The translations under genes and the position numbers were made by a program. From a virus, in the UHGV virus genome UHGV-0313797: 31,126 nucleotides of DNA; one strand, 5' to 3'. Shown in pieces: positions 263 through 19,837 of this stretch (its first letter is position 1; each line of letters opens with the position of its first letter). The notes under the pieces were generated by a model that made no database searches, was not told the origin of the DNA, and saw only the letters and a list, made by a program, of their open reading frames with translations.

Positions 263-1981
263 ATGATTTTTAGGGATAGCTTGAGAGTATTACCTTATGG
301 TCGAGTAGATAATGATTTCTTCCAGATAGAAGAAAGACGTTCATGGAATGCAGGGCGATATTATTGGTCTAATAGAAGGATTTTTGGTTATATTGGAATT
401 ACTCAATCCAGTAATAAAGAGCTGAAAGATAAGTCGGGGAGAGAGGGATTCATAAGAAACCAGGCTGCAAGAGAACTGAAAACTATTATATCTAATTTGT
501 TAACTGAACTTGCTGATAGATTTTTTGGTTCACGTTCTGATGACCGTAAAGAGCTTTTAGAACAAGTTAAGCGTGAAAAAGAGTTAAGAAAATCTGCTCA
601 ACAACAAGCTCGAAAATCAACACAAAAAAGTTTTTCAGAAGCTTTGAAGAATCAGACACCAGTTCTTGATGCTTCCTTGGAGGCTGTTAAAAGGCTGAAA
701 ACTAAGCTTGATAAAACTGATGGTTCGTTAGATTTAAACTATCTTAAAATTATAGACAGTGATCTTACAAACTTAGATGCGTTGCGCAGTGAAATTAAAA
801 CGCCTATCAAACCTCCAAAACTTGGAATGTATGAAGAGAAATATAGAGACTACAGAGATAAATTTAATGAGTTCTCTGCGTATATTCTACAAATGAAGTT
901 AGCAATTAATAAACTTGATTCTGAATTAAATAAACTTGAGCCTTCATTGTCAGCGAAAAATCACCTTGAAAAAAATCAAGGTATTATTAATTCTAAACTA
1001 ACTAAGTTTAATAACACGATAGAGGAGAAGATACATTCTCTTTTAAAAAAATGGGCCGATGAAATAAAGGTTGATCGAAGTGATTATTATGCTAAAACTA
1101 TATCAGTTGTTGATTCAATAGATAATGATTCACAAATTGAAAATGTGTTTAATTTGCTCGATAGTTTATATGTTGAGTCAGTTGATACCCTAACTTTCAA
1201 ATATCAATCAATAATAAAAGGTCTCGATAGATTATTTGAAGGTATAAACTTAGATTCAGCATTCTCATTATCTGAAGAAGAACGCTCATATTTTGAAGAA
1301 AAAGCTAAAAGTTTAAACGCGCTTGCACAGTTAGGTATTAGTGTTGAGATAATATCTCATGAACTTGAAGAAATGGATTCTATGGTAACCAGAGGACTAA
1401 ACTCTCTTCCTACTTCTGTAAAAGAACACCCTGGTTTTTCATTGGCGTTAAATGCTCACAGATCGCTTACTCAACAAATACGTTTCTTATCACCTTTGAA
1501 AATATCAGGTTATCAATCCAGGCAGAGAATAACTGGAAAAAATATCATGGATTATGTCCTGAAGTTCTTTGGGGAGCGTTTCGAACGGCAACGAATAACT
1601 ATTGAATTTAGTGAAGAGTTTAAGCAAATCGCAATAACAGATATACCATCAAGGATCTATCCTGTTTTTACTAATATTATCAACAATGCAATGTATTGGG
1701 TCAGTCTGTCAAATAATAGGCTCATAAAGATTGGTTTTGTGAATTCTTTGGTTATCATAGCAAATTCTGGTCCGGCAATTGATACCGATGATATCCCGCG
1801 ACTATTTGAACTATTTTATAGCAAAAGAGCAAATGGACATGGGGTAGGTCTGTATCTATGTCGAGAAAACCTTGCTGTTGCACATCATAAAATATGGTAT
1901 TCAGAACCTGATGAAGGCGATAACTATTTAATAAAAGATGGCGCTAATTTTGTGATCCAGTTCAATGGAGTGGAGTTCTAA
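263..1981 (+). CDS. Histidine-kinase-like protein (coiled-coil N-terminal region, HisKA-like H-box, HATPase_c); possibly 5'-truncated by the IS3 insertion
   Basis: 572-aa ORF. C-terminal part shows an H-box-like ISHELEEMDS, an N-box NIINNAMYW, a G1-like IIANSGPAID and a G2 box GHGVGLYLCRE. The same frame stays open upstream from 263 back to position 137, inside the IS end. Confidence 0.6.
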   Translation: MIFRDSLRVLPYGRVDNDFFQIEERRSWNAGRYYWSNRRIFGYIGITQSSNKELKDKSGREGFIRNQAARELKTIISNLLTELADRFFGSRSDDRKELLEQVKREKELRKSAQQQARKSTQKSFSEALKNQTPVLDASLEAVKRLKTKLDKTDGSLDLNYLKIIDSDLTNLDALRSEIKTPIKPPKLGMYEEKYRDYRDKFNEFSAYILQMKLAINKLDSELNKLEPSLSAKNHLEKNQGIINSKLTKFNNTIEEKIHSLLKKWADEIKVDRSDYYAKTISVVDSIDNDSQIENVFNLLDSLYVESVDTLTFKYQSIIKGLDRLFEGINLDSAFSLSEEERSYFEEKAKSLNALAQLGISVEIISHELEEMDSMVTRGLNSLPTSVKEHPGFSLALNAHRSLTQQIRFLSPLKISGYQSRQRITGKNIMDYVLKFFGERFERQRITIEFSEEFKQIAITDIPSRIYPVFTNIINNAMYWVSLSNNRLIKIGFVNSLVIIANSGPAIDTDDIPRLFELFYSKRANGHGVGLYLCRENLAVAHHKIWYSEPDEGDNYLIKDGANFVIQFNGVEF

Positions 1982-1982
1982 T

Positions 1983-3731
1983 ATGACAGTGGCAAATTAT
2001 AATTCTCTTGTCCAGAAAACTTTCTGCGAAAATGCAATTCGTTCCGTTGTCATGATTGATGACGATTTTCTGACGTATTCTGAATCAATCAGGGCGTTGA
2101 ATAACGAAGTTGATTTAGACTACAACAAAATTGACTCATCTAAACGAGCCGCTACTCTTGAGAGCTTTTTTCAATCTAAAAATATGATTTGTGATGTTGA
2201 CAATGGTTCTGTTAATTTCGATGTGGATCGGATTAGAAAATCAGATCTTATTATTGTAGATTATCATCTTGATAATAATGCACCTGATAAAACACTTAAA
2301 CTATTACAAGATTTGAAAGACTCCGATCATTTAAATATGATTGTAATATATACTAGAGAGAATTTAGAAACGGTTTGGATGCAGATATCATCGACTCTCA
2401 AAGGTGCTCTGGATATCAACAGCTTGATCATTGACTACGATAATGAAGATGTCCAAAGTTATTGGGAAGACGTTGTATTACCGAACTTAAATGATAATGG
2501 TAATAAAGCTCTCACAAGAGATGAAACAATAGCCTATATTAAAGACAGTAAGCCTTGTAGAAGAATTAAAAGATTAATACATGATGATGCTGTGTTGAAG
2601 GATCAAAAGGATAAAAACTTCATTGCAAAAATGATTGCAGAATATGCTGTGTCTAGAAATGCAATTATTTCTAGCAACACATCTGGCAATGTCATTCGGG
2701 GTGATGAAAGCGGAGTAAAATGGATTCAATGTGGTAATATCTTTGTCTCCCTATTTCATAAGGTTCAAGATGATCATGAAAACGATGGAGATAGGATTTG
2801 GCAAACTCTCAATGATTCTCTCATTGAATGGAAACCATCTTATTATCAGTTAATAAAATCTGAAATTCAGAATGCAATCGAAGCTGAGGCTTTATCTTTT
2901 GTAAATCATTTGGCTAACGATCATTACGGTCAAGCTGCGTGGTTAAATGAGATATTAAAATCAGACTCGCCTGATATTAGATGTAGAAATATTGACTTTG
3001 TATTTGGTAATTTATCAGAAGAGCTTTATCAAAGACTTAAAAATAATAATACGCTGGATGAATTTATCAAAAGTGTTTTTGATAGCTATTCAAATGAATA
3101 CGCTAACAGCGGAGTTGCTGCATTGCTCCAATATTGCTCTTCAAAAATGGATCTGCCATCAAATAATGATACTTATCACGAAATGTATCATGCTTTAAAT
3201 ATGAATTTGTCTTCAAAGAATTTTGAAGATGGTCATATTTCTACTGGCACTATTTTCTTTGATACAGAGTCGAACAAATGGTATTTATGTGTATCTGCGG
3301 CATGTGATTTGGTTCCTACTCAGGGTAACGACCCTCACCATGTAAGATTAAGTCCGCACAGGCTCATTAAAGTTCTGGAGCTTTTTAACGCCAGTCAGAG
3401 TAAAGCATTGCCATTTGCTGAACATTCGAAATATATATATGTAATGCATAAAAATCAAAGAAAATATCTCTCTATTTTCGAAGGGGATAAAACGCTTCCT
3501 GTTGTTGATTATATGGTGGTGTTGAATCATGGAACAACAGTTGATGGCGAAGAAAAAAATATTATTTCTGCCGTGTTTTTAAGTAATATGGATGGCAACG
3601 TGCAAAATGTTCCTGTCCGACTCAAACTTAAATCTCAACTGAGAACTGGTTATGCAGAAAGATATCAGGCTATAGCGTCTCAGTATAGCTCAAGGATTGG
3701 TGTGGATTATGTATCAATGATGCTACCATAA
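1983..3731 (+). CDS. Receiver (REC)-like domain protein with a large uncharacterized C-terminal region
   Basis: ORF 1965..3731; preferred start is the ATG at 1983, 7 nt after a GGAG. N-terminus has VVMIDDD (acidic pair), then IIVDYHLD (candidate phospho-acceptor Asp) and IVIYT (conserved Thr), a receiver-like pattern with longer spacing than canonical. Residues 150-582 have no motif I recognise. Immediately follows the kinase-like gene. Confidence 0.5.
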   Translation: MTVANYNSLVQKTFCENAIRSVVMIDDDFLTYSESIRALNNEVDLDYNKIDSSKRAATLESFFQSKNMICDVDNGSVNFDVDRIRKSDLIIVDYHLDNNAPDKTLKLLQDLKDSDHLNMIVIYTRENLETVWMQISSTLKGALDINSLIIDYDNEDVQSYWEDVVLPNLNDNGNKALTRDETIAYIKDSKPCRRIKRLIHDDAVLKDQKDKNFIAKMIAEYAVSRNAIISSNTSGNVIRGDESGVKWIQCGNIFVSLFHKVQDDHENDGDRIWQTLNDSLIEWKPSYYQLIKSEIQNAIEAEALSFVNHLANDHYGQAAWLNEILKSDSPDIRCRNIDFVFGNLSEELYQRLKNNNTLDEFIKSVFDSYSNEYANSGVAALLQYCSSKMDLPSNNDTYHEMYHALNMNLSSKNFEDGHISTGTIFFDTESNKWYLCVSAACDLVPTQGNDPHHVRLSPHRLIKVLELFNASQSKALPFAEHSKYIYVMHKNQRKYLSIFEGDKTLPVVDYMVVLNHGTTVDGEEKNIISAVFLSNMDGNVQNVPVRLKLKSQLRTGYAERYQAIASQYSSRIGVDYVSMMLP

Positions 3732-3802: not shown

Positions 3803-4219
3803 TTATTTTTGTTTAAGTCTTCTAAGCTTCATGCATTCTAATGAGAATAATAATAGAGTTGTGCTGTATATAAAGCCAGAGTTAGTTAATAACTTTAAAT
3901 TTAATGCTTCAGGATTTTCACTGAGAAAGTGAAAGGCATAAACTAAGTATACAGCTAAAGTAGCCGTTCCAATTGTTGGTCCAATATCGCCTTGATCATG
4001 AGGTTCAAGGTTTACATTGAACTTGAAGATTAGCCATTCAAATCCCCAAGTAAAAAAAACAACTAATATCATGGCTGCGAATAATTTCGCGATGTTATCT
4101 GCTGATGGATTCATCAGAACAGATTGTTTCTGAAAAAATTCACAAAGTGAGAGTCCGAAAAAAATAAAAAAAAGTGGTCTGGAACTAAATTTTTCAAAAA
4201 CTTTGAATAGGGTTTCCAT
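3803..4219 (-). CDS. Small hydrophobic (membrane) protein, hypothetical
   Basis: 138-aa ORF with several hydrophobic stretches (LFFIFFGLSL, FAAMILVVFFTWGF, TATLAVYLVYAF); AGG-type RBS upstream of the ATG; AT-rich. Confidence 0.45.
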   Translation of the reverse strand: METLFKVFEKFSSRPLFFIFFGLSLCEFFQKQSVLMNPSADNIAKLFAAMILVVFFTWGFEWLIFKFNVNLEPHDQGDIGPTIGTATLAVYLVYAFHFLSENPEALNLKLLTNSGFIYSTTLLLFSLECMKLRRLKQK

Positions 4220-4257: not shown

Positions 4258-5487
4258 TTAGGCTACCAGAGCATTTGATCTTTGAGCTTGAAGGTAATCA
4301 CTCCACCATTGCATCAAACTCTGTCGCTCTATCAGATATTCTGCACGATTGTATGCTGCGATAATTTCATCTTTTTTCGAGTGGGCAAGCGCTGCCTCAA
4401 GAACTTCAGCTCTGAATTTACCAGACTCCTCTGCCGCTGTTCGTGCAATAGAACGCATACCGTGAGCTACAAGCTCGCCTCCGAACCCCATTCGGATGAT
4501 AGCTGCGTTGGCTGTTTGTTCATGCATATGATTAAGAGGCGCTTTTATGCTGGGGAAAACCCATTCTCTATGCCCACTTATTGATTTCATTAATTCAAGG
4601 ATGCGCAAAGCTTCTTTACTCAAAGGAACTTTGTGAAGCTTTTTCATTTTCATGAAATCAGCAGGAATGTTCCAAATGCTGTTGGTTGTATCAATATCAG
4701 ACCACCTTGCGCGAACGGCTTCACCCGGACGAACCCATGTCAACAATTGCCATTCAATTAGCATACGTGTTTCCAACCGGATTGACGCATTCGTCAAAGA
4801 TTCCATAAACCTTGGCAATTCGCTTGGGGGAAGGGCAGGCATATTTTGCTTTTTTGGTTTACTGAATCTTTGACCAAGGTTGTCAGCCGGGTTGAACTCA
4901 ATAAGTTCTTCAGTAGCTGCCCACCGGAAGATTTCATTCAGACGTGAAATGATACGGCGTAGAGTTTCCAATACGCCTCGTTGCTCAATAGGATCAAGGT
5001 GTTGTTTTAAGAGCTTAGGTCGGATCTCATTGATAGGGACATTACCCAGACCGGGAAAGACATTTCTCTCTAAGCTGCGCCAGATGTCTGCTGCATGGTC
5101 TTGTGAGATACCTGATGTCTTTACCTTCTCATCTAACCATTTCCGCGCTACGGCTTGGAGAGTGTGCTCAGTAGCACTCTTTAATGCCTTCGCCTTATCG
5201 TTGTTATGGATTTGGGGATCAACACCATTTGCCAGAAAGGAGAGATATTCATCACGTAAGGCTCTGGCTCTTGCAAGGGTAAGGTGAGGATATGTCCCAA
5301 GGCTCATTTTGGTTCTTTTCTTGCTCACTGGTACTGCATACCTGAAATACCAATTTTTCTTGCCTCCTTTCGCCAAAGGAGCGATTCGTAGAATCAGACC
5401 ATCACCGTCAAACAAGTTGATTTCTTTATCGGCTGGCTTGGTGCTTTTGATTTCAGTGTCAGTGAGCTTCTTAGCGATTTTTGCCAT
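4258..5487 (-). CDS. Tyrosine recombinase, P4-type integrase family
   Basis: ORF 4258..5529 trimmed to the ATG preceded by GGAGGG (MAKIAKKLTDTEIKS...). N-terminus resembles the P4-integrase N-terminal domain (LTDTEIKSTKPADKE...LFDGDGLILRI); catalytic-domain-like C-terminus (HGMRSIARTAAEE, AHS...AAYNRAEY). Sits directly downstream of a tmRNA 3' end copy, as CP4-57 intA does at ssrA. Confidence 0.85.
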   Translation of the reverse strand: MAKIAKKLTDTEIKSTKPADKEINLFDGDGLILRIAPLAKGGKKNWYFRYAVPVSKKRTKMSLGTYPHLTLARARALRDEYLSFLANGVDPQIHNNDKAKALKSATEHTLQAVARKWLDEKVKTSGISQDHAADIWRSLERNVFPGLGNVPINEIRPKLLKQHLDPIEQRGVLETLRRIISRLNEIFRWAATEELIEFNPADNLGQRFSKPKKQNMPALPPSELPRFMESLTNASIRLETRMLIEWQLLTWVRPGEAVRARWSDIDTTNSIWNIPADFMKMKKLHKVPLSKEALRILELMKSISGHREWVFPSIKAPLNHMHEQTANAAIIRMGFGGELVAHGMRSIARTAAEESGKFRAEVLEAALAHSKKDEIIAAYNRAEYLIERQSLMQWWSDYLQAQRSNALVA

Positions 5488-5652
5488 TTTGGGACCCTCG
5501 GTTTTTGGACCCTTCTTAGTGGGTCCCATTCAGGGTGCCATAACTCGTAGTTCTCAGCAATTCTCACTGGACGACAATAGACGTAAAAAAGCCCGCAGAG
5601 CTTGTGCTGTGTGGGCTTAGTAGACTTCATTGAACTTCAAACAACTAAAAAG

Positions 5653-5752: not shown

Positions 5753-6844
5753 TTAGACTGTGTTAGGCATTTTTACGTCGTTAAACTTCTTTGTCGCCAT
5801 TTTGCCGCCACTGGAAGCTTTTATAACGTTAGGCTTTGTATATTTATCCCAGTGAGGAGAATAAATCGGACAATCAAGTGTAATATATTGATCAAAAAGA
5901 AATCTAAAGTCTGTTTCATATATATAATTAATTATATGTTCATACGGAGCTAATTCGGCACCATAAATTATCGTTTTTATTTTTCTTGTTAGATATATAC
6001 TTGCCTCAACGAATTCAAGAAAAGCATTTTCTTCGTGAGCAAAAGTAATAATACTGTATTCATTGATCGATATTTTATATCTTGCCCGCATAATACTGTC
6101 GATACAGAGCTTTTCAAAAATCATGGCTGTTTTGTTAGAAACAGAATTTATTATTCTAAGGTACTCCAGTGGTTTATTTTCTGGGGCCAGTTTCCTTGGT
6201 TTTAGTGCGTTATCTATATCTCTAAGTAATACTTCTATTTCTTCTAGGAACTTGCTGCTTGGTTCGAAGTTAGATAGGCTGTGTGGGGCTGAGTTGGGGT
6301 ATATTTTTTTATAGAGCAAGTAAGGATTTGTAATTTTAACTTGATCGGTAGTTGCTATTTTTTCATTATCAATTTCCTTGGACGAAATGATGCTTCCATC
6401 TTTGTTAGATAGATTTAAAATTGTGAAAGTAGATAAGTGGTTTATTTTTTCGATGAAGTTTTTTTCATGAGCCAAATATCTGTCAACGGCATTTTTGCTA
6501 TCAGCTGCTTGTATTTGTGCTTCGGTTTGAATTGTGCGATGAATATTGTTTACTATCGATGCGAGAGGAACAGAACTTGCTAGTAGCAATAAAGGAAACT
6601 TGCTGATCTCATAAAATCTAAAATATCCGTGAGCAGTGAGGACAGGTGTTTTTCCACTCCATGCAAAGTAACCAAAGTAAAAAAATGAAAAAACAGGAAG
6701 TAAAATCGATAACCAAAATAATTTTTGGCGGTATAGATTTCTTTTGTCTAACTTGTACCATCTCCTCCAAATGGAAATGATTAAAATTAATATAATTATT
6801 GTTGCATAAATATAAATGTATATATGGTCAGGATATGTTTTCAT
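5753..6844 (-). CDS. Membrane-anchored hypothetical protein; cargo gene translationally coupled to the prophage integrase
   Basis: 363-aa ORF; its ATG overlaps the int stop codon (ATGA overlap at 6841-6844). N-terminal predicted TM segments (ATIIILILIISIW, LFWLSILLPVFSFFYFGYFAW, FPLLLLASSVPLASIV) followed by about 270 soluble residues with no recognised motif. Visibly AT-rich compared with neighbouring phage genes. Confidence 0.6.
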   Translation of the reverse strand: MKTYPDHIYIYIYATIIILILIISIWRRWYKLDKRNLYRQKLFWLSILLPVFSFFYFGYFAWSGKTPVLTAHGYFRFYEISKFPLLLLASSVPLASIVNNIHRTIQTEAQIQAADSKNAVDRYLAHEKNFIEKINHLSTFTILNLSNKDGSIISSKEIDNEKIATTDQVKITNPYLLYKKIYPNSAPHSLSNFEPSSKFLEEIEVLLRDIDNALKPRKLAPENKPLEYLRIINSVSNKTAMIFEKLCIDSIMRARYKISINEYSIITFAHEENAFLEFVEASIYLTRKIKTIIYGAELAPYEHIINYIYETDFRFLFDQYITLDCPIYSPHWDKYTKPNVIKASSGGKMATKKFNDVKMPNTV

Positions 6845-7863
6845 ACGTGATTTATACTATTTAGTGGGTTTTTGGTTACTGCATCTTCAAGATGTTCAGG
6901 GGAAAAATGTGCATATACCATGGTCATCTTGATATCTGAGTGACCCAATATATCTCTCAATACTAGGATATTTCCGCCGTTCATCATAAAATGGCTGGCG
7001 AATGTATGGCGCAACACGTGAGTGCATTGGCCATCAGGCAGTTCGATACCGGCCCGTTTTACTGCACGCTCAAAGGCTTTTCTGCATGGTGTGAATAACT
7101 TCCCTCTGTTTTTGGGTAGCTCGTTGTACAGATCCTGAGATATCGGTACGGTGCGGTTTTTTTTACCCTTTGTCTTTGTATAGGTAATCCGGTATTTCGA
7201 TAGTTGATGTCCCTGCAGGTTTTCAGCTTCACTCCAACGTGCACCAGTTGCTAGGCATATTTTTGCAATCATCAGCAGACTGGGGCTTTGAGAATCAGCA
7301 CAGGCATCTAGCAGACGTTTAATTTCTTCCGGAGTCAAGAACGCCAGTTCACCTTCAGTAATTTTAAATGTTGGAAGCCCGGCAAGAGGGTTGGGGGCTG
7401 ACCAGTGGCCCAGCTTTTTCAGTGTACCAAAAACCGATGATAGGTTGCGTTGTTCAAGATTTACCGTGCGGGGCTTAACGGGCGACATTAGCGTGCCATC
7501 TTCATTTCGCACTTCACCTTTTAGCCGTGCTTCGCGGTATTTCGTAAAGTCACCGGCAGTCAGCTCTGAAGCGATGGGATCGCCTAGACCATTACAGATA
7601 ATTCTAAGTTTCGCCATGAGGCGCTTGGGGTCTGCGAGTGTTTGACCATATAGGGAATACCACAGCTCAATTAATTCTGATAGGCGTCTGCGATCTTCCT
7701 TTTCCCCCAACCATGGTTTTTTGTTCACTTCTTCCATTGTGAAGCTTTCAAAAGCAATGGCTTCGCCTTTTGTAGCAAATTGCTTACGTACGCGCTTGCC
7801 ATTGCGTCCATTGGGATAGCACTCACACAACCATTTACCGTTTGGCTGTTTTCTGACAGTCAT
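6841..7863 (-). CDS. int: P2-type prophage integrase (tyrosine recombinase)
   Basis: 340 aa; C-terminal catalytic region HVLRHTFASHFMMNGGNILVLRDILGHSDIKMTMVYAHF is typical of P2/186 integrases; size and position next to the repressor gene match the P2-family layout. Confidence 0.9.
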   Translation of the reverse strand: MTVRKQPNGKWLCECYPNGRNGKRVRKQFATKGEAIAFESFTMEEVNKKPWLGEKEDRRRLSELIELWYSLYGQTLADPKRLMAKLRIICNGLGDPIASELTAGDFTKYREARLKGEVRNEDGTLMSPVKPRTVNLEQRNLSSVFGTLKKLGHWSAPNPLAGLPTFKITEGELAFLTPEEIKRLLDACADSQSPSLLMIAKICLATGARWSEAENLQGHQLSKYRITYTKTKGKKNRTVPISQDLYNELPKNRGKLFTPCRKAFERAVKRAGIELPDGQCTHVLRHTFASHFMMNGGNILVLRDILGHSDIKMTMVYAHFSPEHLEDAVTKNPLNSINHV

Positions 7864-10994: not shown

Positions 10995-11848
10995 GCACCA
11001 TCCTGAAATGGGCGGGAAATAAAACCGCCATTATGCCAGAACTGAAAAAACACCTTCCAGCTGGCCCGCGACTGGTTGAACCTTTCGCGGGTTCCTGTGC
11101 GGTGATGATGGAGACGGATTATCCAAGCTATCTGGTTGCGGATATTAATCCTGATTTAATCAACCTCTATAAAAAGGTTGCCGCTGATTGTGAATCGTTT
11201 ATATCTCGCGCCAGAGTTTTATTTGAGAACGCAAACAGGGAGGTAGCTTATTACAACATAAGGCAGGAGTTTAATTACTCAACTGAAATTACTGATTTCA
11301 TGAAAGCGGTATATTTCCTGTATCTCAATCGTCACGGTTACCGTGGTTTATGTCGCTATAACAAGAGCGGGCATTTCAATATTCCCTACGGTAATTATAA
11401 AAATCCGTATTTCCCTGAAAAAGAAATTCGCGCATTTGCAGAAAAAGCCCAGCGGGCAACGTTTATCTGCGCCAGCTTTGATGAAACGCTGGCGATGTTG
11501 AAGGCGGGGGATGTGGTGTATTGCGATCCGCCTTATGACGGTACGTTTTCCGGCTATCACACTGATGGTTTCACTGAAGATGACCAGTATCACCTGGCAT
11601 CCGTTCTTGAACATCGATCATCTGAAGGACATCCGGTCATTGTTTCTAACAGTGACACATCCCTGATTCGTTCGCTGTATCGCAATTTTACTCACCACTA
11701 TATCAAGGTAAAACGCAGCATCGGTGTGGCAGCTGGCGAGTGTAAATCAGCAACAGAAATCATCGCTGTTTCCGGGCCGCGCTGCTGGGTGGGATTTGAT
11801 CCTTCGCGTGGCGTGGATAGTTCTGCCGTGTACGGAGTGCGTGCATGA
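10991..11848 (+). CDS. dam: DNA adenine methyltransferase, Dam family
   Basis: ORF 10919..11848 trimmed to the ATG after [16 protein letters not shown]..., [28 protein letters not shown] and catalytic VYCDPPY align closely with E. coli Dam. Confidence 0.9.
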
Positions 11849-14259
11849 GCCATGCTGATATGAACAACTGCAGCGGCTTTAACGAGGTCGCAGCAGCATT
11901 CTCATGGAGCAGCCCGAAAAAGGCCATTAACCCTTATCTGGACCCGGCGGAAGTTGCGCCGGTTTCTGCGCTTTCAAACCTGATCACTCTGTACGCTGCC
12001 GATAACGAGCAGGAACAGCTGCGCCGTGAGGCGCTGAGTGATCAGGTCTGGGAGCGTTATTTCTTTAATGAATCCCGTGATCCTGTCCAGCGCGAAATCG
12101 AGCAGGATAAGCTCATTAGTCGGGCAAAGCTGGCGCATGAGCAGCAGCGTTTTAATCCGGATATGGTCATTCTGGCGGACGTCAACGCCCAGCCTTCCCA
12201 TATCAGCAAGCCGCTGATGCAACGTATTGAATACTTCAGCAGCCTGGGCAGGCCAAAGGCTTATTCCCGCTATTTGCGTGAGACGATTAAGCCATGTCTG
12301 GAACGACTGGAGCATGTACGCGAGAGTCAGCTATCCACTTCTTTTCGCTTTATGGCAAGCCATGAAGGGCTGGACGGCCTGCTGATCCTGCCTGAAATGA
12401 GTCAGGATCAGGTGAAGCGCCTGTCTACCCTTGTTGCCGCGCATATGAGCATGTGCCTTGATGCAGCTTGTGGTGATTTGTATGCCACCGATGACGTTAA
12501 GCCAGAAGAAATCCGCAAGACATGGGAAAAGGTGGCAGCGGAAACCCTGCGTCTGGATGTAATCCCTCCTGCGTTTGAGCAACTCCGTCGGAAAAGAAAC
12601 CGCCGTAAACCCGTGCCCTATGAACTCATTCCGGGTTCGCTGGCGCGTATGTTGTGCGCCGACTGGTGGTATCGGAAATTATGGAAGATGCGTTGCGAAT
12701 GGCGGGAAGAGCAGTTGCGTGCTGTCTGCCTGGTCAGCAAAAAAGCATCTCCCTATGTCAGCTATGAAGCCGTGATGCATAAACGTGAGCAGCGCCGTAA
12801 GTCGCTGGAGTTTTTCCGTTCTCATGAACTGGTGAACGAAGACGGCGACACGCTGGACATGGAGGATGTGGTAAACGCCAGCAGCAGCAACCCGGCGCAT
12901 CGCCGCAATGAGATGATGGCCTGTGTTAAAGGTCTGGAGCTTATCGCGGAAATGCGCGGTGACTGCGCCGTTTTCTACACCATCACCTGTCCGTCACGTT
13001 TCCATTCCACGCTCAATAACGGCAGACCAAACCCGACCTGGACAAACGCGACGGTAAGACAAAGCAGCGATTATCTGGTCGGCATGTTTGCTGCATTTCG
13101 TAAGGCGATGCACAAAGCCGGGTTGCGCTGGTATGGCGTGCGGGTGGCTGAGCCGCATCATGACGGCACAGTTCACTGGCACCTGTTGTGTTTCATGCGC
13201 AAAAAAGACCGCCGTGCCATCACTGCATTACTGCGTAAGTTTGCCATCCGTGAAGACCGCGAGGAGCTGGGCAATAACACTGGGCCGCGCTTTAAGTCTG
13301 AGTTGATTAACCCGCGCAAAGGAACGCCAACAAGCTACATCGCGAAATACATCAGTAAGAACATTGACGGGCGTGGTCTGGCTGGCGAGATCAGCAAGGA
13401 AACGGGGAAATCCCTGCGTGATAATGCTGAATACGTTAATGCCTGGGCGTCTCTGCATCGTGTTCAGCAATTCCGCTTCTTTGGCATTCCGGGGCGTCAG
13501 GCTTACCGTGAACTGCGATTGCTGGCTGGTCAGGCGGCAAGGCAACAGGGGGACAAAAAAGCAGGTGCGCCGGTACTGGATAACCCACGCCTTGATGCCA
13601 TCCTGGCTGCTGCTGATGCTGGTTGTTTTGCCACCTACATCATGAAGCAGGGCGGCGTACTGGTTCCCCGCAAATATCACCTCATCAGAACCGCTTATGA
13701 AATCAACGAAGAGCCGACCGCCTATGGCGATCACGGCATTCGTATTTATGGCATCTGGTCACCTATTGCAGAGGGCAAGATCTGCACTCATGCCGTGAAG
13801 TGGAAAATGGTTCGTAAGGCCGTTGATGTTCAGGAGGCGGCAGCTGACCAGGGCGCTTGCGCCCCTTGGACTCGTGGCAATAACTGTCCCCTTGCTGAAA
13901 ATTTGAACCAACAGGAGAAAAACAAATCAGCTGATGGGGATACCAGAACGGATATCACCCGCATGGATGACAAAGAGTTGCACGAATACCTGCACAGTAT
14001 GAGCAAAAAAGAGCGCCGGGAACTGGTAGAAAGGTTACGCCTGGTTAAACCGAAACGGCGTAGAGACTACAAACAGCGAATTACAGACCATCAACGACAG
14101 CAGCTCGTCTATGAACTGAAATCCAGAGGATTTGATGGCAGCGAGAAAGAGGTCGATTTACTCCTTCGCGGCGGCAGTATTCCGTCAGGAGCAGGCCTGC
14201 GTATCTTCTATCGGAACCAGCGTTTGCAGGAAGATGATAAGTGGCGGAACCTGTATTAA
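11845..14259 (+). CDS. A: Replication initiation endonuclease, P2 gpA family (rolling-circle initiator)
   Basis: 804 aa, last gene of the early operon; contains [13 protein letters not shown] (HUH-type metal-binding motif) and downstream tyrosines (SYIAKYISK); position before the cargo locus matches P2/186 gene A. Confidence 0.85.
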
Positions 14260-14351
14260 TTACGCTGGTTAACAATTCGTGCTCTTAATAATACCAGGCA
14301 TATCAGGCTGATAAGCGTAAAAAAACGTTTTACATCAGTAAGATTATTATA

Positions 14352-14371
14352 TACTGTAAATATAAACAGTG
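14352..14371. promoter_or_regulatory. LexA (SOS) box
   Basis: TACTGTAAATATAAACAGTG: CTGT-N8-ACAG with an AT-rich spacer, matching the LexA consensus; lies about 40 bp upstream of the small ORF at 14413. Confidence 0.6.
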
Positions 14372-14412
14372 GTTATGCATACAGTATTGCGTGTGGTGTC
14401 ATAGGAGGAAAG

Positions 14413-14601
14413 ATGCAGGACTATTTTTTGGAGTCTTTGAAGCTCCAGCGCATTGATTTTTTTCTTAAGCTTGTAGCGGCTAGTGAGTGCGATGATGAAG
14501 AGAAGCGGCTTGCTATCCAGTGGGTTTCGGAGCTGACCGATGAGTTAATGGCGAAAATCCGTACTCATGAGTACAACCGTTCAATGGATCTCCCCGGTTA
14601 G
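14413..14601 (+). CDS. Small SOS-controlled protein; candidate Tum-like antirepressor
   Basis: 62-aa ORF with a strong RBS (AGGAGG, 6 nt spacer); preceded by the LexA box; in the position of the LexA-regulated tum gene of phage 186. Sequence identity to Tum was not verified. Confidence 0.45.
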   Translation: MQDYFLESLKLQRIDFFLKLVAASECDDEEKRLAIQWVSELTDELMAKIRTHEYNRSMDLPG

Positions 14602-15186
14602 GCTTAGGAACGTTGCTGGCGTTAGGACTTGATTCTGACGCTAGCAAGGTTGATCAACGAGCCATGCGAGGCGTTAGTCATGGGCAAAAAAATAGTAACT
14701 TCCAGATTTTGTTTCGTGCCAGGTATTGAGTAGTTTTATCGCCAGAGGGGCTGTTAGCGCTCAAACTACTAATGGAGCCACACCTTAGATGAGTGATTTG
14801 GCTTAAGCTATGATTATATAGTTTCGCTGTACGGCGGCCTTGCTTTTTATTGAAGCGACCAGACTGGAACAACGGCGAAAGGAGACTAACGATACGCACC
14901 AGTTTTTTGAAAAGGTACAGTTATCTAGATTGGTTGCCAATTTTCGTTGAAACCTGACATACCATTAGGTCATTGCTTTAGAAAAATTAATACTTGATGT
15001 GAGAATTGCTTCAAAACATCTAGAATTAAAATTTCTTTACTAGTATGCTTCACCACTTGGTCGTTGGGTTGAGTGCAAAAGCTAAGGCTGATGCCCAGTA
15101 CGCTATCCGCATTATTGCCAGAGAACCGATTCGAAACCGGAATCTGGCAGAGCATGGGCGCAAGTGCTGGCTTCCCAACGGCCTCG

Positions 15187-16155
15187 TTATTTATAATATG
15201 CTGACTTCAAAACCACTCGTCTTTCAACCTGCTGTGATAGCATTACCGCGTTAGTCCAATCTTTTGGATACCTTATTTCTTCTATAACACGAATATAAGC
15301 ACATACTTTATTTTTTCCTTCTCCTTTGGCATAAGTAACCTCTAGATTATTAAATTTCAATAAGTGCTCTCTTCTTTGGTAAGTAAAACAGCCGTAATCA
15401 CGGACATCAGAAGAAGTAATAGCATGAGTTGAAGGAAACCGAACTAGTAAATTTCTCAAGTAGGGAATAATGTCCAAACTCGTTGCTTTGTTTTCTTCTC
15501 TGCGACTCTTTCTGAACATATGTCTCCAACCCAGCCGTGTAAGCTCGATTTTCCCAAGCACCGGAGATGTGATTTCTTTCTGTTCAGAATAACGTTTTTT
15601 AACAAACGCTCGCCGATTATTAAGTAGTGAGTTTCTTCTTCTTACATGGATTCCTTTTGCTCCAGTTTCACCTGCACGTATCATGGACATACAGCGAGCC
15701 AGGTCAAACCGTGTAGCCGGAGTGATTAAGTGATATTCTCCATAAGTTTGGTTTTTAAGGGTAGTGTTTGGATGTATATAGGCCCAAAATGCTTTACGAT
15801 TAGTTCTGTCAACCCAAACGACACATATATGGTGAGTTGTCCTTTTGGCTGCTTTTTTTGCGGCCGAATTTAATACAAAACCTTTCTCTAATAAATGACC
15901 ATAAGTTGCCCCTGATTTAACTTGCGACAATATAAGCATTCTTTCTTTTGATGCCCATGGATGTTCGAAGGATAATATTAAATCTATTTTTGAATTGTCG
16001 TCTTCCCTGGAACCCCAGTGCCCCTCTCCTCTACAAGCAAGAATGAATTGACTCATTGCATAAGATTCGGCGTCACTGCCGTTAACTGAGTTAAACTGTC
16101 TTGTTTCTAGCACAGTTGGTATTGGTCGTGATGCAAGTAAACTGAAAGATCCCAC
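15187..16155 (-). CDS. Uncharacterized cargo protein in the A-Q variable locus; possible PD-(D/E)xK-like N-terminal region
   Basis: 322-aa ORF starting at a GTG 8 nt downstream of GGAGAG. AT-rich. N-terminal region has GEGHWGSREDDNSKIDLILSFEHP...ERMLILSQVKSG, a D...(Q)xK pattern compatible with a restriction-endonuclease-like fold; a strongly basic segment (IHVRRRNSLLNNRRAFVKKRYSEQKE) follows. No confident family assignment. Confidence 0.55.
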   Translation of the reverse strand: MGSFSLLASRPIPTVLETRQFNSVNGSDAESYAMSQFILACRGEGHWGSREDDNSKIDLILSFEHPWASKERMLILSQVKSGATYGHLLEKGFVLNSAAKKAAKRTTHHICVVWVDRTNRKAFWAYIHPNTTLKNQTYGEYHLITPATRFDLARCMSMIRAGETGAKGIHVRRRNSLLNNRRAFVKKRYSEQKEITSPVLGKIELTRLGWRHMFRKSRREENKATSLDIIPYLRNLLVRFPSTHAITSSDVRDYGCFTYQRREHLLKFNNLEVTYAKGEGKNKVCAYIRVIEEIRYPKDWTNAVMLSQQVERRVVLKSAYYK

Positions 16156-16592
16156 TTATAGTTCTCTCCAAAAAATTGCATAATCTCGAACGCTAAAAAA
16201 TAGTATACAAACTAAAGTATTTTTTCATTTAATTCAATGTATTGGCTAAAATTAAGACATTTATAGCTATATGTACTAGATAACATAGCGTTGTTTTCCT
16301 TTTGAAATCTCTTCTTGTGGTAACACAACAGTATTTACTCAAGTAGTTTGTCACTGCATGGGGAGATTTCGCTATGTCCGCGGCATCATACAGATGCGAT
16401 AGATTTTCAGCATGACCTTGGGTAGCAAATCTGTAGGTATCATCCATTGCACCTCAAAGTAACTCTGGTGCATACCTATGCTGCATGAAAATGAATGATC
16501 GCTAGTGGATCGTTTATGTCGAAGCCTGCCAGTTCTGACGGGCTTTTGCTTATGTTATGCAACTGCATGAAAACCACTACACAAAGCGGGCA

Positions 16593-16611
16593 GGCGTGGC
16601 GGGGATACGAG
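16593..16611. other. Candidate cos site (cohesive-end sequence of the P2/186-like genome)
   Basis: GGCGTGGCGGGGATACGAG shares its first 13 nt with the 19-nt cohesive end of phage 186 (GGCGTGGCGGGGAAAGCAT, from memory) and lies in the A-Q interval where P2-like prophages carry cos. Confidence 0.45.
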
Positions 16612-16719
16612 CGCGCGCTGTATGCCTGAAGTGGCTAAAATAGTATCTGTCATAGGTACAACTTAGTGTAGTATCATCCATATAATCCATTGAAATATAA
16701 TCGACTCTCATTAGAGGTG

Positions 16720-17718
16720 ATGATGAACGGAATCTGGTACGAAAACACTCATACACGCATTCCTAATTTTGAAACAACAGTACATCAAAAGCACAAATTC
16801 GGTTACGCTTATGAAACAACAAGTCATTTTGTGCATCTGTATGGGCGTGACGTGGGATTTAATGTAATATCAGTTGGGTTAACTGTTATTGAGCAACGAA
16901 GTGGAACTCTCAATGATTGGGTTCGGAGAGTATTTGGGGCTCAGAACATATCTCCTTTAGATAATGAAATTGGACATGTAACTAGGGGAGTGTGGCGGCC
17001 ATCCTTATATTATGTCAATGATACAGAAACAGCATTAGGTATCGATGAGTTTGAAAAAAGAGCAACAGAGCAAGCTCTAAGAGTTTTGATAGAAAAACTC
17101 GATGATATTTTTCTATATGTAGAACCAAGTGCCCATGGTTTGATTTCTTACAGTCATAAATGTAGAGAGCTATTAATTCTTGCTTGTACTGAGGTTGAAA
17201 ATCAATGGGTGTCAATCATTGGTAATTCGAATTTATCTCGTTCAAATGGTCGATACTCCACAAATGATTATGTGAAATTATTAGATAAGTGTTATTTGTC
17301 TGAATATAAAATTCAATATTTGAATTATGACGGATTAAGGCATTTCAAACCTTTTGATGGGTGGAATGCAAGTACCCCTACAACATCTTTGTCATGGTAT
17401 AATGCATATAATAAAACTAAACATGATAGATCAGGAGCATTCCACTTTTCCACTTTAGAAAATGTAATGGATGCAGTTGCTGCTTGTGTTGTAATGTACT
17501 GTGTAAAATATGGCCCGTTTAGCTTATTGGAAGCCAATACGTCTCTATCAACGATCGTTAATCAAAACTTTTCAATTTCATTAGATAATAGCAATCCAGC
17601 AAGTTATTACATTCCTGAAATTGAACTTCCACCGGATACAAGAACGGATTTATTAATTTATGATTGTTATCGAGAAAACCATAATAAAGCATGGGTCACT
17701 GATCCCCTAGTGCTCTAA
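16720..17718 (+). CDS. Uncharacterized cargo protein with a HEPN-like Rx4H motif; candidate abortive-infection effector
   Basis: ORF 16690..17718 trimmed to the ATG after AGAGGTG (MMNGIWYENTH...). AT-rich. C-terminal region has YNKTKHDRSGAFHFSTLENVMDAVAAC; RSGAFH fits the R-x4-H signature of HEPN RNase domains. Single-motif evidence only. Confidence 0.55.
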   Translation: MMNGIWYENTHTRIPNFETTVHQKHKFGYAYETTSHFVHLYGRDVGFNVISVGLTVIEQRSGTLNDWVRRVFGAQNISPLDNEIGHVTRGVWRPSLYYVNDTETALGIDEFEKRATEQALRVLIEKLDDIFLYVEPSAHGLISYSHKCRELLILACTEVENQWVSIIGNSNLSRSNGRYSTNDYVKLLDKCYLSEYKIQYLNYDGLRHFKPFDGWNASTPTTSLSWYNAYNKTKHDRSGAFHFSTLENVMDAVAACVVMYCVKYGPFSLLEANTSLSTIVNQNFSISLDNSNPASYYIPEIELPPDTRTDLLIYDCYRENHNKAWVTDPLVL

Positions 17719-17728
17719 TTTCCTGCTA

Positions 17729-17758
17729 AAGGGAGCTTTTAATTATAAACGCTCCCTT
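17729..17758. terminator. Hairpin between convergent genes (possible bidirectional terminator)
   Basis: Perfect 8-bp inverted repeat AAGGGAGC / GCTCCCTT around a 14-nt AT-rich loop, located between the stops at 17718 (+) and 17775 (-); no clear U-tract. Confidence 0.35.
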
Positions 17759-17774
17759 CGGTTGTCGCTATTTA

Positions 17775-18748
17775 TTATATATCAATAGAGTTTTGAAATT
17801 TTAATAACTGCCATCTTGTTAATAGTGGTTTTATTGCTATGTTGTGTTGGGTATTTATTTTTAAACCTTCGAATTTCGAATATCCATTTTCCAAGGCTTC
17901 CACTGAAAAATGAATGGTTTTTGTTATCGGGTTTATAGCACAAAGATTTAGGTTATATAAAGTATGAATGTCACTTCTGAGCAATAATCCATTGCTAATA
18001 TGATTGTGACTATCGTTTCGATATACATTAATGTGAGCAGCATCAAGAATATCAACAAGCTTACAGCCCATAACCGCACAAGTAGGATTTGATTTTAATA
18101 GCTGGTCGCGAAATGTTTTTTGCCCACTTCGTTGTTTTATTTGCCGTTCTACAATTTGCCGTTGATCTTCACCCATTAAAGTGGGGGTGTCTTTATCAGC
18201 TTCGCTGGCGTTGAGCTCCAGAATAATAGTATGTTGGGCGGTAAGCAAAGCAACAGCCCATTGATAGTTAACTTCTTGGATGGACATTTGCCCATTGTAG
18301 CGTGGAGTTTCATCTATAAATTGTGACATTGTAATATTGGATAATTTACGGTACTGGTTGCCGCAGTATGCTATAAATTCTTTAGCTGGCTCAAAAACCA
18401 CTCTGGGTTCATCAAATTCATGGCCATTATCACAACGCCACTCTGATTTTATAGTTTTCCTTTGAAGAATTTTTTTGCTTTGCAGTCTAGGTTAATACAT
18501 TTGTTACGCTTCTTATTAATGCTCTGTGTTTCTAATTTTTCAATAACAGATATACCTAAAATATTTTCTCTGTTGGTAATAATAATAATATCACCGTCTT
18601 TTACATTTTTGTGGTTCGCTACAAAACTGTCATAGCGATAGAAAACTGATGAGTCATCGGGATAACTATCATTTCCCCAGTATCTAAGATCGTCTTTCTC
18701 AATTGCCTTAAAAAAAACCATACTTGCTGTACCATGAACTTTTCCCAC
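17775..18748 (-). pseudogene. HNH-family endonuclease (HNH_2-like) split by a frameshift in a homopolymer tract
   Basis: Two consecutive minus-strand ORFs (18449..18748 and 17775..18401) overlap in different frames around a run of 7 A (minus strand) at 18470-18476; one extra A would fuse them into about 320 aa. Downstream part has CAVMGCKLVDILDAAHINVYRNDSHNHISNGLLLRSDIHTLYNLN (C..C...AHI....SNGL.L...H..Y), the signature of McrA-like HNH nucleases. Confidence 0.6.
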
Positions 18749-18805
18749 TAATCAAATTTTGGTTTGTTCTATCGAACAGCAAAGCATGTTGATATACAAG
18801 AGAAA

Positions 18806-19837
18806 TCATCCCAAAGAATATGGCTCAAATCGCAAAATTTTTTGTTCTAACCAGTCATTTACTTCACGCATCCTTTTTTGCAACGGTAATAATTCATTTC
18901 GCACAAACACATTTGCCGCCTTCTCCACATCCCCAAACCCCCCAACATTGCTAGGCATTATCCCCATCATTTGTGGTGGCACACGATGCGCTGCCATCAT
19001 GTCATCCCGACTCACGTTCTTGATGTTAAGAAATTCATCCTTCGCTGCGACTTCTGATAGCGGGATAATCTGAAGCCCGTCTTTTTTGCCGTTAGGCGAG
19101 TACATAAACAGGTTGCGGAAGTTACCCGGACCTTTGGCACTTTTCATCGCGTTGCGGAGGTTGTTTACATCCTCCTGGTTCTGCGCGGCGTCGGTCATGT
19201 ACATGATGAAGCCTGCATGACTGCCGTTGATGTAATACTTACGGCGGAACAGCGTGGCGGACTCATTGAGCAGGGCGGACGGAATGGCAGAAAGATAGCC
19301 GGGCAGGCCGTAGATCTCTTGGTTAATGTCCGGTTCCATCAGATGAAAAATGCTGCCTTTCGTGAACTGATACGGCTGGGTTGTCATACCGTATTGCACA
19401 AACCAGTAGGTATTCAGGTCTAACCCGCGTCGGGTGTATTTTGCCAGAGCAGGCTCAAGGGCGATAACTTCACCGAAGCGGTTCGTGCGTTTCTCCAGGT
19501 AGGCGTTACCAAATACCAGATAGTCCTGCACAAAACGTGAAAAAGCCTGCTGGCTGAGCAGCGGGTGAGGGATGTAGGTACTGGTCAGAATGTTGCATTT
19601 CACCGCAATTGGTGAACTGTGATGCACGGCGGCGCGGAAGGTGCGCGCCAGTCCGTCAAAACTCACTGGCGGCTCATACCAGCGATCTGTCTGTACGCAT
19701 TCCACATAGTCCAGTAGTTCACGGCGGTCCAGAACCGGAACGGGATCGCCGAAGCTGAATGCTTCGGCTGAAGTCTGGTTTTTATGCTGGGTCTGTTTCG
19801 TCGCCGCAGCGAGGTTCTTCTTACTCTTTCCCATCAA
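18806..19837 (-). CDS. Q: Portal protein, P2 gpQ family
   Basis: 343 aa (P2 gpQ is about 344 aa); start overlaps the stop of the upstream terminase gene; position and orientation as in P2. Confidence 0.9.
   Translation of the reverse strand: MMGKSKKNLAAATKQTQHKNQTSAEAFSFGDPVPVLDRRELLDYVECVQTDRWYEPPVSFDGLARTFRAAVHHSSPIAVKCNILTSTYIPHPLLSQQAFSRFVQDYLVFGNAYLEKRTNRFGEVIALEPALAKYTRRGLDLNTYWFVQYGMTTQPYQFTKGSIFHLMEPDINQEIYGLPGYLSAIPSALLNESATLFRRKYYINGSHAGFIMYMTDAAQNQEDVNNLRNAMKSAKGPGNFRNLFMYSPNGKKDGLQIIPLSEVAAKDEFLNIKNVSRDDMMAAHRVPPQMMGIMPSNVGGFGDVEKAANVFVRNELLPLQKRMREVNDWLEQKILRFEPYSLG

Follow-up and report, generated by a model that had tools for sequence, protein, structure and literature searches.

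The virus genome UHGV-0313797, studied here as a single strand of 31,126 nucleotides (the window), contains a P2-like prophage in which the interval between replication gene A and portal gene Q holds a nuclease gene, a structured small RNA gene, a gene for a protein with a HEPN-like fold and a broken HNH gene, arranged around the cos site. The conserved flanks are gene A on the left (11845–14259, plus strand; PF05840 Phage_GPA, E = 1.4 × 10−127) and gene Q on the right (18806–19837, minus strand; PF04860), and the terminase gene comes next after gene Q. The A–Q interval (14260–18805) is 4,546 bp in length and has a G+C (GC) content of 0.381, compared with 0.556 for the backbone and at least 0.549 for every 4.5-kb stretch of the late region. 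At third codon positions (GC3), the cargo genes have values of 0.25–0.30 compared with 0.58–0.70 in genes A, Q, P and O. The cargo is thus foreign in composition relative to the backbone, and the view of a preliminary description that the two large intact genes are AT-rich is borne out. In P2-like prophages of Escherichia coli, the interval between gpA and gpQ is a cos-adjacent diversity hotspot rich in anti-phage genes, with 1,650 arrangements among 18,150 loci (Rousset et al. 2022, Cell Host Microbe, PMC9122126). A more recent preprint confirms the hotspot and reports that swapping is rapid and defence pseudogenes are few (Moura de Sousa et al. 2026). The interval studied here lies between gpA and gpQ of a P2-like prophage and adjoins cos, and its earlier recognition as the variable locus of these phages agrees with the first of these studies. 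The features originally listed for it (the transcription units, a candidate cos site, a frameshifted HNH gene and a 585-bp tract) are all present at or near the positions given for them.

Comparison with related prophages resolves the interval into two modules that meet at a conserved block beside cos (the segments, modules and block described here are without strand). The first gene, which encodes 62 amino acids (aa; 14413–14601, plus strand; phrog_698, E = 1 × 10−36), belongs to the conserved backbone and is not cargo. The stretch 14260–14592 is 88–91% identical in many P2-like prophages, and in approximately 1,260 of the 5,426 complete E. coli genomes compared, the shared sequence is limited to the flanks, including the surroundings of this gene. 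An empty site is found in E. coli Combat2C1, in which gene A and the 62-aa gene are followed without interruption by a dinI-like gene, a 73-nt segment and the cos block. A conserved 72-nt segment of the window (14606–14677), 85% identical to 1501–1573 of the Combat2C1 locus (L177), forms the left border of an insertion. At 14593–14605 the window lacks the dinI-like gene, which C21, Combat2C1 and many other P2-like prophages have downstream of the 62-aa gene, so that the 62-aa gene almost directly abuts the segment that elsewhere comes after dinI. We rejected the possibility that 14606–14677 is a remnant of dinI, as it corresponds to the conserved segment downstream of dinI in other prophages.

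The left cargo is a 1,782-bp insertion (14678–16459) that carries the nuclease gene and the small RNA gene. It lies exactly between the conserved segment and the cos-proximal block (16460–16619), and comparison with the empty site of Combat2C1 places both borders to the base. At least 80% of the sequence from 14600 to 16600 is present in only 4 of the 5,426 complete E. coli genomes, and also in 5 IMG/VR viral contigs. The cos-proximal block, which is common to all compared prophages, is where the two modules meet: identity with SW071614 is 100% as far as 16619, the match with E. coli C21 and FORC_081 starts at 16468 and that with Combat2C1 covers 16460–16617. Within the block, the cos site (GGCGTGGCGGGGATACGAG; 16593–16611, plus strand) aligns with bases 1–19 of the record of Salmonella phage SEN8, which annotates a 19-nt putative cos site at its base 1. 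Just upstream of cos, and also within the block, is a terminator-like hairpin followed by TTTTGC (16521–16548, plus strand), which is kept in Combat2C1 (GCCCGCCAGAACTGGCGGGCTTTTGC). The right module (16620–18805) contains the gene for a 332-aa protein and the HNH gene; it is at least 99.5% identical in 12 of the 5,426 genomes and 91.5% identical in SEN8. The C21 arrangement, including these right-hand genes, appears as "hypothetical ... HNH_2" in Table S5 of the hotspot survey (Rousset 2022, PMC9122126). The locus type is known, and the right-hand arrangement is catalogued but unstudied.

The two halves of the interval match different E. coli strains. SW071614 is 100% identical to the left half and has other genes to the right of cos, including one for a HIRAN-domain protein. 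C21 is 99.6% identical from 16620 onwards and differs to the left of cos, where it has dinI, an immunity gene of contact-dependent inhibition (CDI) and an RNase A-like toxin. Among the 5,426 complete genomes, the left cargo occurs in 4 and the right cargo in 12, and none has both. The cos site divides the A–Q interval into two cargo slots that are independent of each other; because the left and right modules assort independently, the window is a recombinant joined within the cos block. A mosaic with variable content between conserved flanks had been proposed, and both parts of this proposal hold across the related prophages, in which gene content differs and an empty site exists. The four transcription units of alternating orientation are also present, but the 62-aa gene, being conserved backbone, is not an independent unit of cargo, and what had been regarded as a single island is two slots separated by cos.

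The protein gene of the left slot (15187–16155, minus strand) encodes a 322-aa PD-(D/E)XK nuclease of the DUF4365/DREN type, with a C-terminal domain that is APAZ-like or NTF2-like. In identical copies, RefSeq calls a protein of 289 aa. Homologues conserve residues 5–33, with invariant N22, N25, G26 and E30, and because this conservation extends across the family we consider the 322-aa reading to be correct. We identified 179 homologues of constant length (approximately 320 aa) in Gammaproteobacteria, Betaproteobacteria and Cyanobacteria. The window protein was left unnamed by every library scanned (PADLOC 2.0, Pfam, NCBIfam and PHROGs with known function), so the statement that the large intact genes belong to no assignable defence family stands as regards named families. 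It is incomplete, since both proteins have assignable folds: a DUF4365/DREN nuclease similar to the effector of SPARDA for the 322-aa protein and a HEPN-like domain for the 332-aa protein.

The fold assignment of the nuclease comes from an AlphaFold (AF2) model with a predicted local distance difference test (pLDDT) score of 90. A Foldseek comparison of this model with the Protein Data Bank (PDB) returned SPARDA complex entries for all of the 12 best matches (probability 0.98–1.00, E values down to 3.5 × 10−7). Eleven of these alignments span approximately 360–380 columns, and the single domain-length alignment has a root-mean-square deviation (rmsd) of 4.3 Å over 153 columns. The whole-chain alignments have rmsd values of 20–30 Å; ranked next, for the C-terminal part, are NTF2-like folds, which fit its helix and long sheet. 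The E...D...Q-x-K signature of the PD-(D/E)XK fold is present as invariant E44, D58 and Q78-x-K80, the last of which corresponds to Q62 and K64, the proposed active-site residues of the DUF4365 nuclease TmuRE (PMC10810196). Homologues at 46–54% identity reach 24.6–26.6 bits with the DUF4365 profile (cut-off, 24.3) and touch LPD3 weakly, and four family members match the PADLOC model for Argonaute-associated REases, also weakly. Neither the nuclease nor the 332-aa protein has a sequence-level link to solved structures. We also rejected the idea that the C-terminal half is a second copy of the nuclease domain (hhalign probability, 0.03%).

In the homologue loci examined, the nuclease gene is always the lone protein gene in mobile or defence contexts. 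Its neighbours include a P4-type integrase, the SBD-HNH enzyme of a dnd phosphorothioation island and SNF2/PLD, SLFN-helicase, MrcB_N and AAA_13 genes. No Argonaute or Piwi (MID-PIWI) gene adjoins it, in these loci or in the window. In the cyanobacterium Nodosilinea sp. LEGE 06152, the nuclease-plus-RNA module lies inside a dnd cluster, directly after a ScoMcrA-type SBD-HNH enzyme, and the locus is duplicated on two contigs (L008 and L009; approximately 5800–9100 of L008). This context may link the nuclease family to the sensing of modified DNA. A 72-aa open reading frame (ORF) upstream of the nuclease gene (16229–16447, minus strand) has no family match and is probably not a gene; it was rejected as a partner of the nuclease because it occurs only in the identical P2-borne copies and not with other family members.

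The small RNA gene adjoins the other end of the nuclease gene. When the window was compared with two diverged loci (81% and 66% protein identity), homology extended approximately 125 nt beyond the stop codon of the nuclease, and in this region it was stronger than in the coding sequence and independent of reading frame. We gathered 27 further loci from metagenomes with a protein-based scan and built a covariance model (R1) from five seeds and a structure specified by hand, with five helices and 31 pairs. In the window, the motif of approximately 130 nt (15056–15185, plus strand) faces the nuclease gene in convergent orientation, with 1 nt between its end and the nuclease stop codon. The model has exactly one match per locus in 27 loci, representing 22 distinct sequences from several phyla; each match begins 1–30 nt after the nuclease stop codon, and nothing else scores in 224 kb. 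The loci without a match are the three most divergent (37–46% identity), one cut by an IS21-family insertion and others that end at a contig edge. The RNA thus adjoins the gene in every locus with an intact 3′ flank and a protein at least about 43% identical, and the model has no match in loci that lack the nuclease gene. In the interrupted locus, from one metagenomic genome (L005, 8971–9017), the RNA gene is broken after approximately 47 nt by the IS21-family insertion and the nuclease gene is intact. As decoys, we used 120 loci from a scan of genome contigs with a degenerate DNA pattern (GCCAGYRMYTGC N51-81 AGCKYACTG). All contain both conserved blocks, and the 871 kb that they comprise gave no match better than E = 2. 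As homologues of the RNA these loci were rejected, all 120 being chance matches with neither gene nor element.

Compensatory double changes occur in 21 of the 31 pairs and are distributed across all five helices. None of 500 shuffles reached the observed covariation score, and slid controls pair at 26–36%. The alignment was fitted to the model and the paired fraction is inflated as a result, but individual helices (for example, GCCGTTGGG/CCCAACGGC, GGCGATGGG/CCCATCGCC and AAAGAGAG/CTCTCTTT) are convincing by themselves. The single-stranded blocks GCAAGUGCUGGC, CCAGUACGCUAUC and UGUGUGC are conserved across phyla. RNAalifold, applied to a plain MAFFT alignment, returned the invariant helix alone, since the alignment had put the variable hairpins out of register; we replaced it by the seed structure and covariance model. 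No match to Rfam 15 was found at E ≤ 1 on either strand of 14200–18900, nor was a tRNA or tmRNA. An attC site, which would require an R″ (RYYYAAC) ... R′ (GTTRRRY) core in that order within a simple bulged hairpin, was rejected: the closing helix has no fixed core and varies freely (GAGAGC/GCTCTC in one case, GGCGATGGG/CCCATCGCC in another), and the element is a five-helix junction. Also rejected was a peptide gene in the form of a 61-aa ORF (14970–15155, minus strand), as a stop breaks the frame in one locus (L024) and the nucleotides stay conserved. The remaining 378 nt between the insertion border and the motif (14678–15055) have no match in other loci of the family and contain only short unsupported ORFs. 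The 585-bp tract (14602–15186) that had been described as having no convincing gene does lack a supported protein gene, but it holds this conserved RNA gene. The suggestion that the 322-aa gene could be a single-gene immunity unit has to be abandoned, given that a structured small RNA gene is paired with it in 27 loci.

Several features indicate the strand from which the RNA would be read. The cells that are not Watson–Crick pairs comprise 50 A–C and 14 G–U, and because A–C cells outnumber G–U cells, pairing climbs from 85.9% to 91.6% on the strand opposite the gene (slid controls, 32–42%), both values being inflated by the fitting of the alignment to the model. These statistics were calculated from the complement of alignment A7; a separate reverse-strand model was dropped because MAFFT misplaced helix P3 in three of the seeds, by one column. 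Of the two strands, the one opposite the gene has the more stable fold in 19 of 21 sequences, with a mean difference of 8.8 kcal/mol (Wilcoxon P = 1 × 10−5), and in the window the plus strand has a folding energy of −54.1 kcal/mol with z = −3.3, compared with z = −1.7 for the minus (gene) strand. A consensus scan located a promoter-like site upstream of the motif (14999–15026, plus strand; GTGAGA, 16 nt, TAGAAT). Inspection by eye shows, on the RNA strand of most homologous loci, a −35 TTGnnn approximately 17 nt from a −10 box, the pair ending 1–12 nt before the motif. On the basis of pairing, fold stability, z score and promoter-like boxes, we place the RNA on the plus strand, opposite the nuclease gene. 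Judged from its sequence, the element is a small RNA gene at about 15056–15185, convergent with the nuclease gene.

The 332-aa protein of the right slot (16720–17718, plus strand; phrog_19461, no known function) belongs to a large orphan family with a HEPN-like helical core. We found 811 homologues of constant length, reaching Bacteroidota and Verrucomicrobiota, and a profile search extended the family to 2,635 clusters at 50% identity, with residues of approximately 108–270 as the common core. Neither close nor distant members match Pfam or PADLOC models, and none of the Pfam HEPN families matches the window protein at the sequence level. The four-helix up-and-down bundle of the HEPN superfamily is nonetheless present in its fold, and its nearest structural neighbours are active toxins and Csm6. 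The canonical Rx4-6H motif is missing; in its place there is an invariant Y230-N231-x-T233-K234-H235-x-R237, with no arginine 4–6 residues before the histidine. The family recurs in defence islands. In E. coli, homologues lie near Gabija and a NACHT protein; in Acinetobacter, near a DUF4238 protein; in Mucilaginibacter, near a methyltransferase and AIPR; and in Pectobacterium, near conjugative-element cargo. The HNH gene does not accompany the family throughout.

We consider it most likely that the 332-aa protein is an infection-activated RNase of the abortive-infection (Abi) type. Compared with HEPN toxins and Abi proteins (HepT of MNT-HEPN, Csm6 and AbiV), its Y-N-x3-H-x-R motif is non-canonical, it has extra conserved β regions at its N and C termini and it lacks an antitoxin partner. 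A less likely alternative is that it is not an RNase, and that the HEPN-like bundle binds a ligand or protein, as catalytically inactive HEPN domains do, with the activity residing in the N-terminal β domain, in which H22, H36, H39 and W92-R93-P94 are conserved. Against this alternative are the invariant H235 with N231, K234 and R237 nearby within the HEPN-like helices, and the fact that the best structural neighbours are active toxins and Csm6.

The second gene of the right slot encodes an HNH_2 endonuclease (17775–18748, minus strand; PF13391, 28.9 bits; phrog_21425) and has a −1 frameshift that probably makes it a pseudogene. Its two fragments on the minus strand, of 99 aa (18449–18748) and 208 aa (17775–18401), cover positions 7–91 and 112–319 of phrog_21425. 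Alignment of SEN8, FORC_081 and C21 places the loss of frame at a homopolymer (18470–18476, coding strand minus; T7 on the plus strand, A7 on the coding strand): the run is A8 in SEN8, whose 319-aa gene is intact, and A7 in the window, FORC_081 and C21. The frameshift reported in the preliminary description is thus the loss of a single A relative to SEN8. All 12 E. coli copies are annotated as split, and the C21 lineage has an additional CAA-to-TAA nonsense codon. In the wider family, the 1,153 homologues are mostly intact proteins of 313–320 aa from Enterobacteriaceae, in which HNH_2 is the sole Pfam domain and the N-terminal approximately 95 residues are unassigned. The frameshift site, GCA AAA AAA TTC, contains A_AAA_AAA, a classic −1 slippery heptamer, and the −1 frame is open through the whole HNH domain. 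Programmed −1 frameshifting, transcriptional slippage or phase variation at the A7 run would be formally possible from the sequence; decay is the simpler reading because of the extra stop codon in the C21 lineage.

The locus and its cargo can be compared with several known systems. The P2 tin/old hotspot shares with the window interval the position between A and Q, adjacency to cos, AT-rich variable cargo between conserved flanks and several systems per locus. The window differs in that both of its intact genes lack a PADLOC match (the model set covers systems named up to 2023) and are absent among the systems of Rousset 2022 and the 2026 preprint, neither of which describes the RNA gene; the two-slot split around cos and the exact insertion point were worked out in the present analysis. 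To judge from the libraries and literature that we searched, neither the module of nuclease and RNA nor the size of the HEPN-like family has been described before. The best whole-protein structural match for the nuclease is SPARDA, a short prokaryotic Argonaute with a DREN-APAZ protein (PDB 9vx6, 9qcc and 9jt2; TmuRE-Ago, PMC10810196), and the DUF4365-type PD-(D/E)XK domain with its Q-x-K motif is a further likeness. The DREN domain of SPARDA itself is a collateral DNase that, once activated, degrades DNA non-specifically and leads to cell death or dormancy. Unlike SPARDA, the window encodes a nuclease that is shorter by approximately 80–100 residues and has a dedicated, genetically linked structured RNA instead of Argonaute-bound guide RNAs.

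Divona (Darracq et al. 2024, preprint), a single-gene DUF4365 cassette of the Vibrio cholerae superintegron with experimentally established anti-phage activity, is also found close to integrases in E. coli. Like the window nuclease, it stands alone and joins a DUF4365 nuclease to a further domain. It is set apart by its description, with a crr6 (PF08847) C-terminal domain and no reported RNA; neither the window nuclease nor three homologues match PF08847 at E ≤ 1. With type III (ToxIN) and type I toxin–antitoxin systems and the RNA-regulated AbiF of Clostridioides difficile (preprint, 10.1101/2025.04.15.648962), the left cargo shares an enzyme that could be lethal beside a small RNA with its own (here putative) promoter, a logic suited to abortive infection. 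It differs in that the RNA is downstream and convergent rather than upstream, forms a five-helix junction of approximately 130 nt and accompanies an enzyme of the PD-(D/E)XK DNase type rather than an endoRNase or small peptide. The window RNA is single-copy, and no tandem or direct repeats of note, such as those of ToxIN-like antitoxins, were found. The convergent orientation is shared with type I systems, in which the toxin is small and hydrophobic rather than a 322-aa nuclease.

Fold and genomic context suggest an anti-phage role for the 322-aa and 332-aa proteins. The best overall explanation, to which we give about even odds, is a two-slot hotspot with an RNA-controlled nuclease effector on the left and a HEPN-type abortive-infection protein on the right. 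By analogy with DREN in SPARDA, the nuclease would lack specificity and could be lethal. Its C-terminal domain would be bound by the RNA, with the conserved single-stranded blocks serving for recognition, and the RNA would keep the nuclease inactive or set its activation, as an RNA antitoxin would. Infection (through host shut-off, RNA decay or a phage factor) or loss of a labile RNA could then free the non-specific nuclease, which would kill or arrest the cell and so abort the infection. The 332-aa protein would, in the simplest view, be a HEPN-type abortive-infection effector. More tentatively, and with lower probability, the left cargo may be the first Argonaute-less relative of SPARDA, a DREN-type collateral nuclease with an APAZ-like domain that is loaded with a dedicated structured RNA acting as sensor or switch. 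The RNA could in that case be an antitoxin that decays upon infection, or a scaffold that triggers assembly of the nuclease.

A number of points weigh against this explanation. Hotspot cargo also includes non-defence genes, for example, partition systems and toxins (Rousset 2022, PMC9122126), and PADLOC 2.0 returned nothing convincing for the cargo proteins. The window nuclease has no match to Pfam DUF4365 (PF14280) at E ≤ 0.1. The apparent APAZ resemblance of its modelled C-terminal domain rests on Foldseek alignments with high overall rmsd, and a profile comparison of the nuclease with PDB sequences gave no match that would back it. The inflation of the paired fraction counts here too, and the RNase activity of the 332-aa protein is uncertain because the Rx4-6H motif is lacking. 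Finally, the 3′ end of the RNA may reach into the coding sequence, which would favour antisense (type I-like) control.

Such control is the main rival, which we regard as unlikely. The RNA would be a cis-antisense regulator whose read-through into the 3′ end of the nuclease gene lowers expression, either because transcription of the one interferes with that of the other or because the RNA pairs with the mRNA, and the structured part would merely stabilise the transcript or set the frequency of termination. The convergent arrangement, the single nucleotide between the end of the RNA and the stop codon, the T-rich sequence after the closing helix in the window and the stable fold of the plus strand are all as expected for such a regulator. 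The conserved, covarying part of the RNA, however, does not overlap the coding sequence, and single-stranded blocks conserved across phyla suggest that the RNA is recognised by a conserved partner and is more than a stabiliser. Known toxins of type I systems are small peptides and not 322-aa nucleases, which also counts against this rival. Somewhat less likely again, the modules may be addiction or competition devices of the prophage, serving post-segregational killing, the exclusion of satellites or related P2-like phages, or a more stable cos region, and not general immunity. CDI toxin–immunity pairs, partition systems and toxins in the hotspot fit such a role, as does the toxin–antitoxin logic of a nuclease with an RNA controller. 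Outside prophages, however, homologues of both proteins are found repeatedly beside Gabija, NACHT, DUF4238, dnd and AIPR genes. Toxin–antitoxin and abortive-infection roles are, in any case, not mutually exclusive. Least probable is a solitary restriction-type enzyme, either modification-dependent (type IV) or homing-like, for the activity of which the RNA is irrelevant; it is difficult to reconcile with an RNA beside the gene wherever the 3′ flank is intact and the protein sufficiently similar, and Foldseek ranks chains of SPARDA entries well above restriction enzymes.

Other islands are present in the window. A second AT-rich island (GC content, 0.29–0.36; 263–3731, plus strand; 3803–4219 and 4258–5529, minus strand) abuts the prophage. 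It encodes a 572-aa HEF_HK/HATPase_c protein that overlaps a 588-aa Response_reg_2 (PF19192) protein, followed by a 138-aa ORF and a P4-type integrase. Its proteins have no PADLOC match, and the HEF_HK/Response_reg_2 pair could be a conflict-system two-component module. A 363-aa ORF (5753–6844, minus strand; GC content, about 0.33) has no Pfam or PADLOC match, overlaps the end of the P2-type integrase gene (6841–7863) by 4 nt and is cargo in the slot between integrase and attachment site (att), which is another minor hotspot of P2 (Moura de Sousa et al. 2026, preprint).

The hotspot itself is well known, and the island as such adds little. The borders of the insertion and the joint in the cos block, in turn, show that cargo is exchanged independently in two slots, and provide a guide for mapping other P2-like prophages. 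The 332-aa family, with about 2,600 clusters that are invisible to Pfam and PADLOC and members that recur beside Gabija, NACHT, DUF4238 and AIPR, is a good source of defence-gene candidates. In the left slot, an RNA motif with strong covariation and without a counterpart in Rfam pairs one-to-one with a nuclease family that is structurally nearest to SPARDA effectors, which hints that protein-only surveys of defence hotspots overlook non-coding partners. As a two-part system of less than 1.8 kb, with one protein and one RNA, it offers a handle on how DREN nucleases are controlled and switched without Argonaute. If the Argonaute-less relationship to SPARDA is true, the module would represent a new class of RNA-controlled single-protein immune effector that has spread in Proteobacteria and Cyanobacteria by way of prophages, integrative islands and dnd islands.

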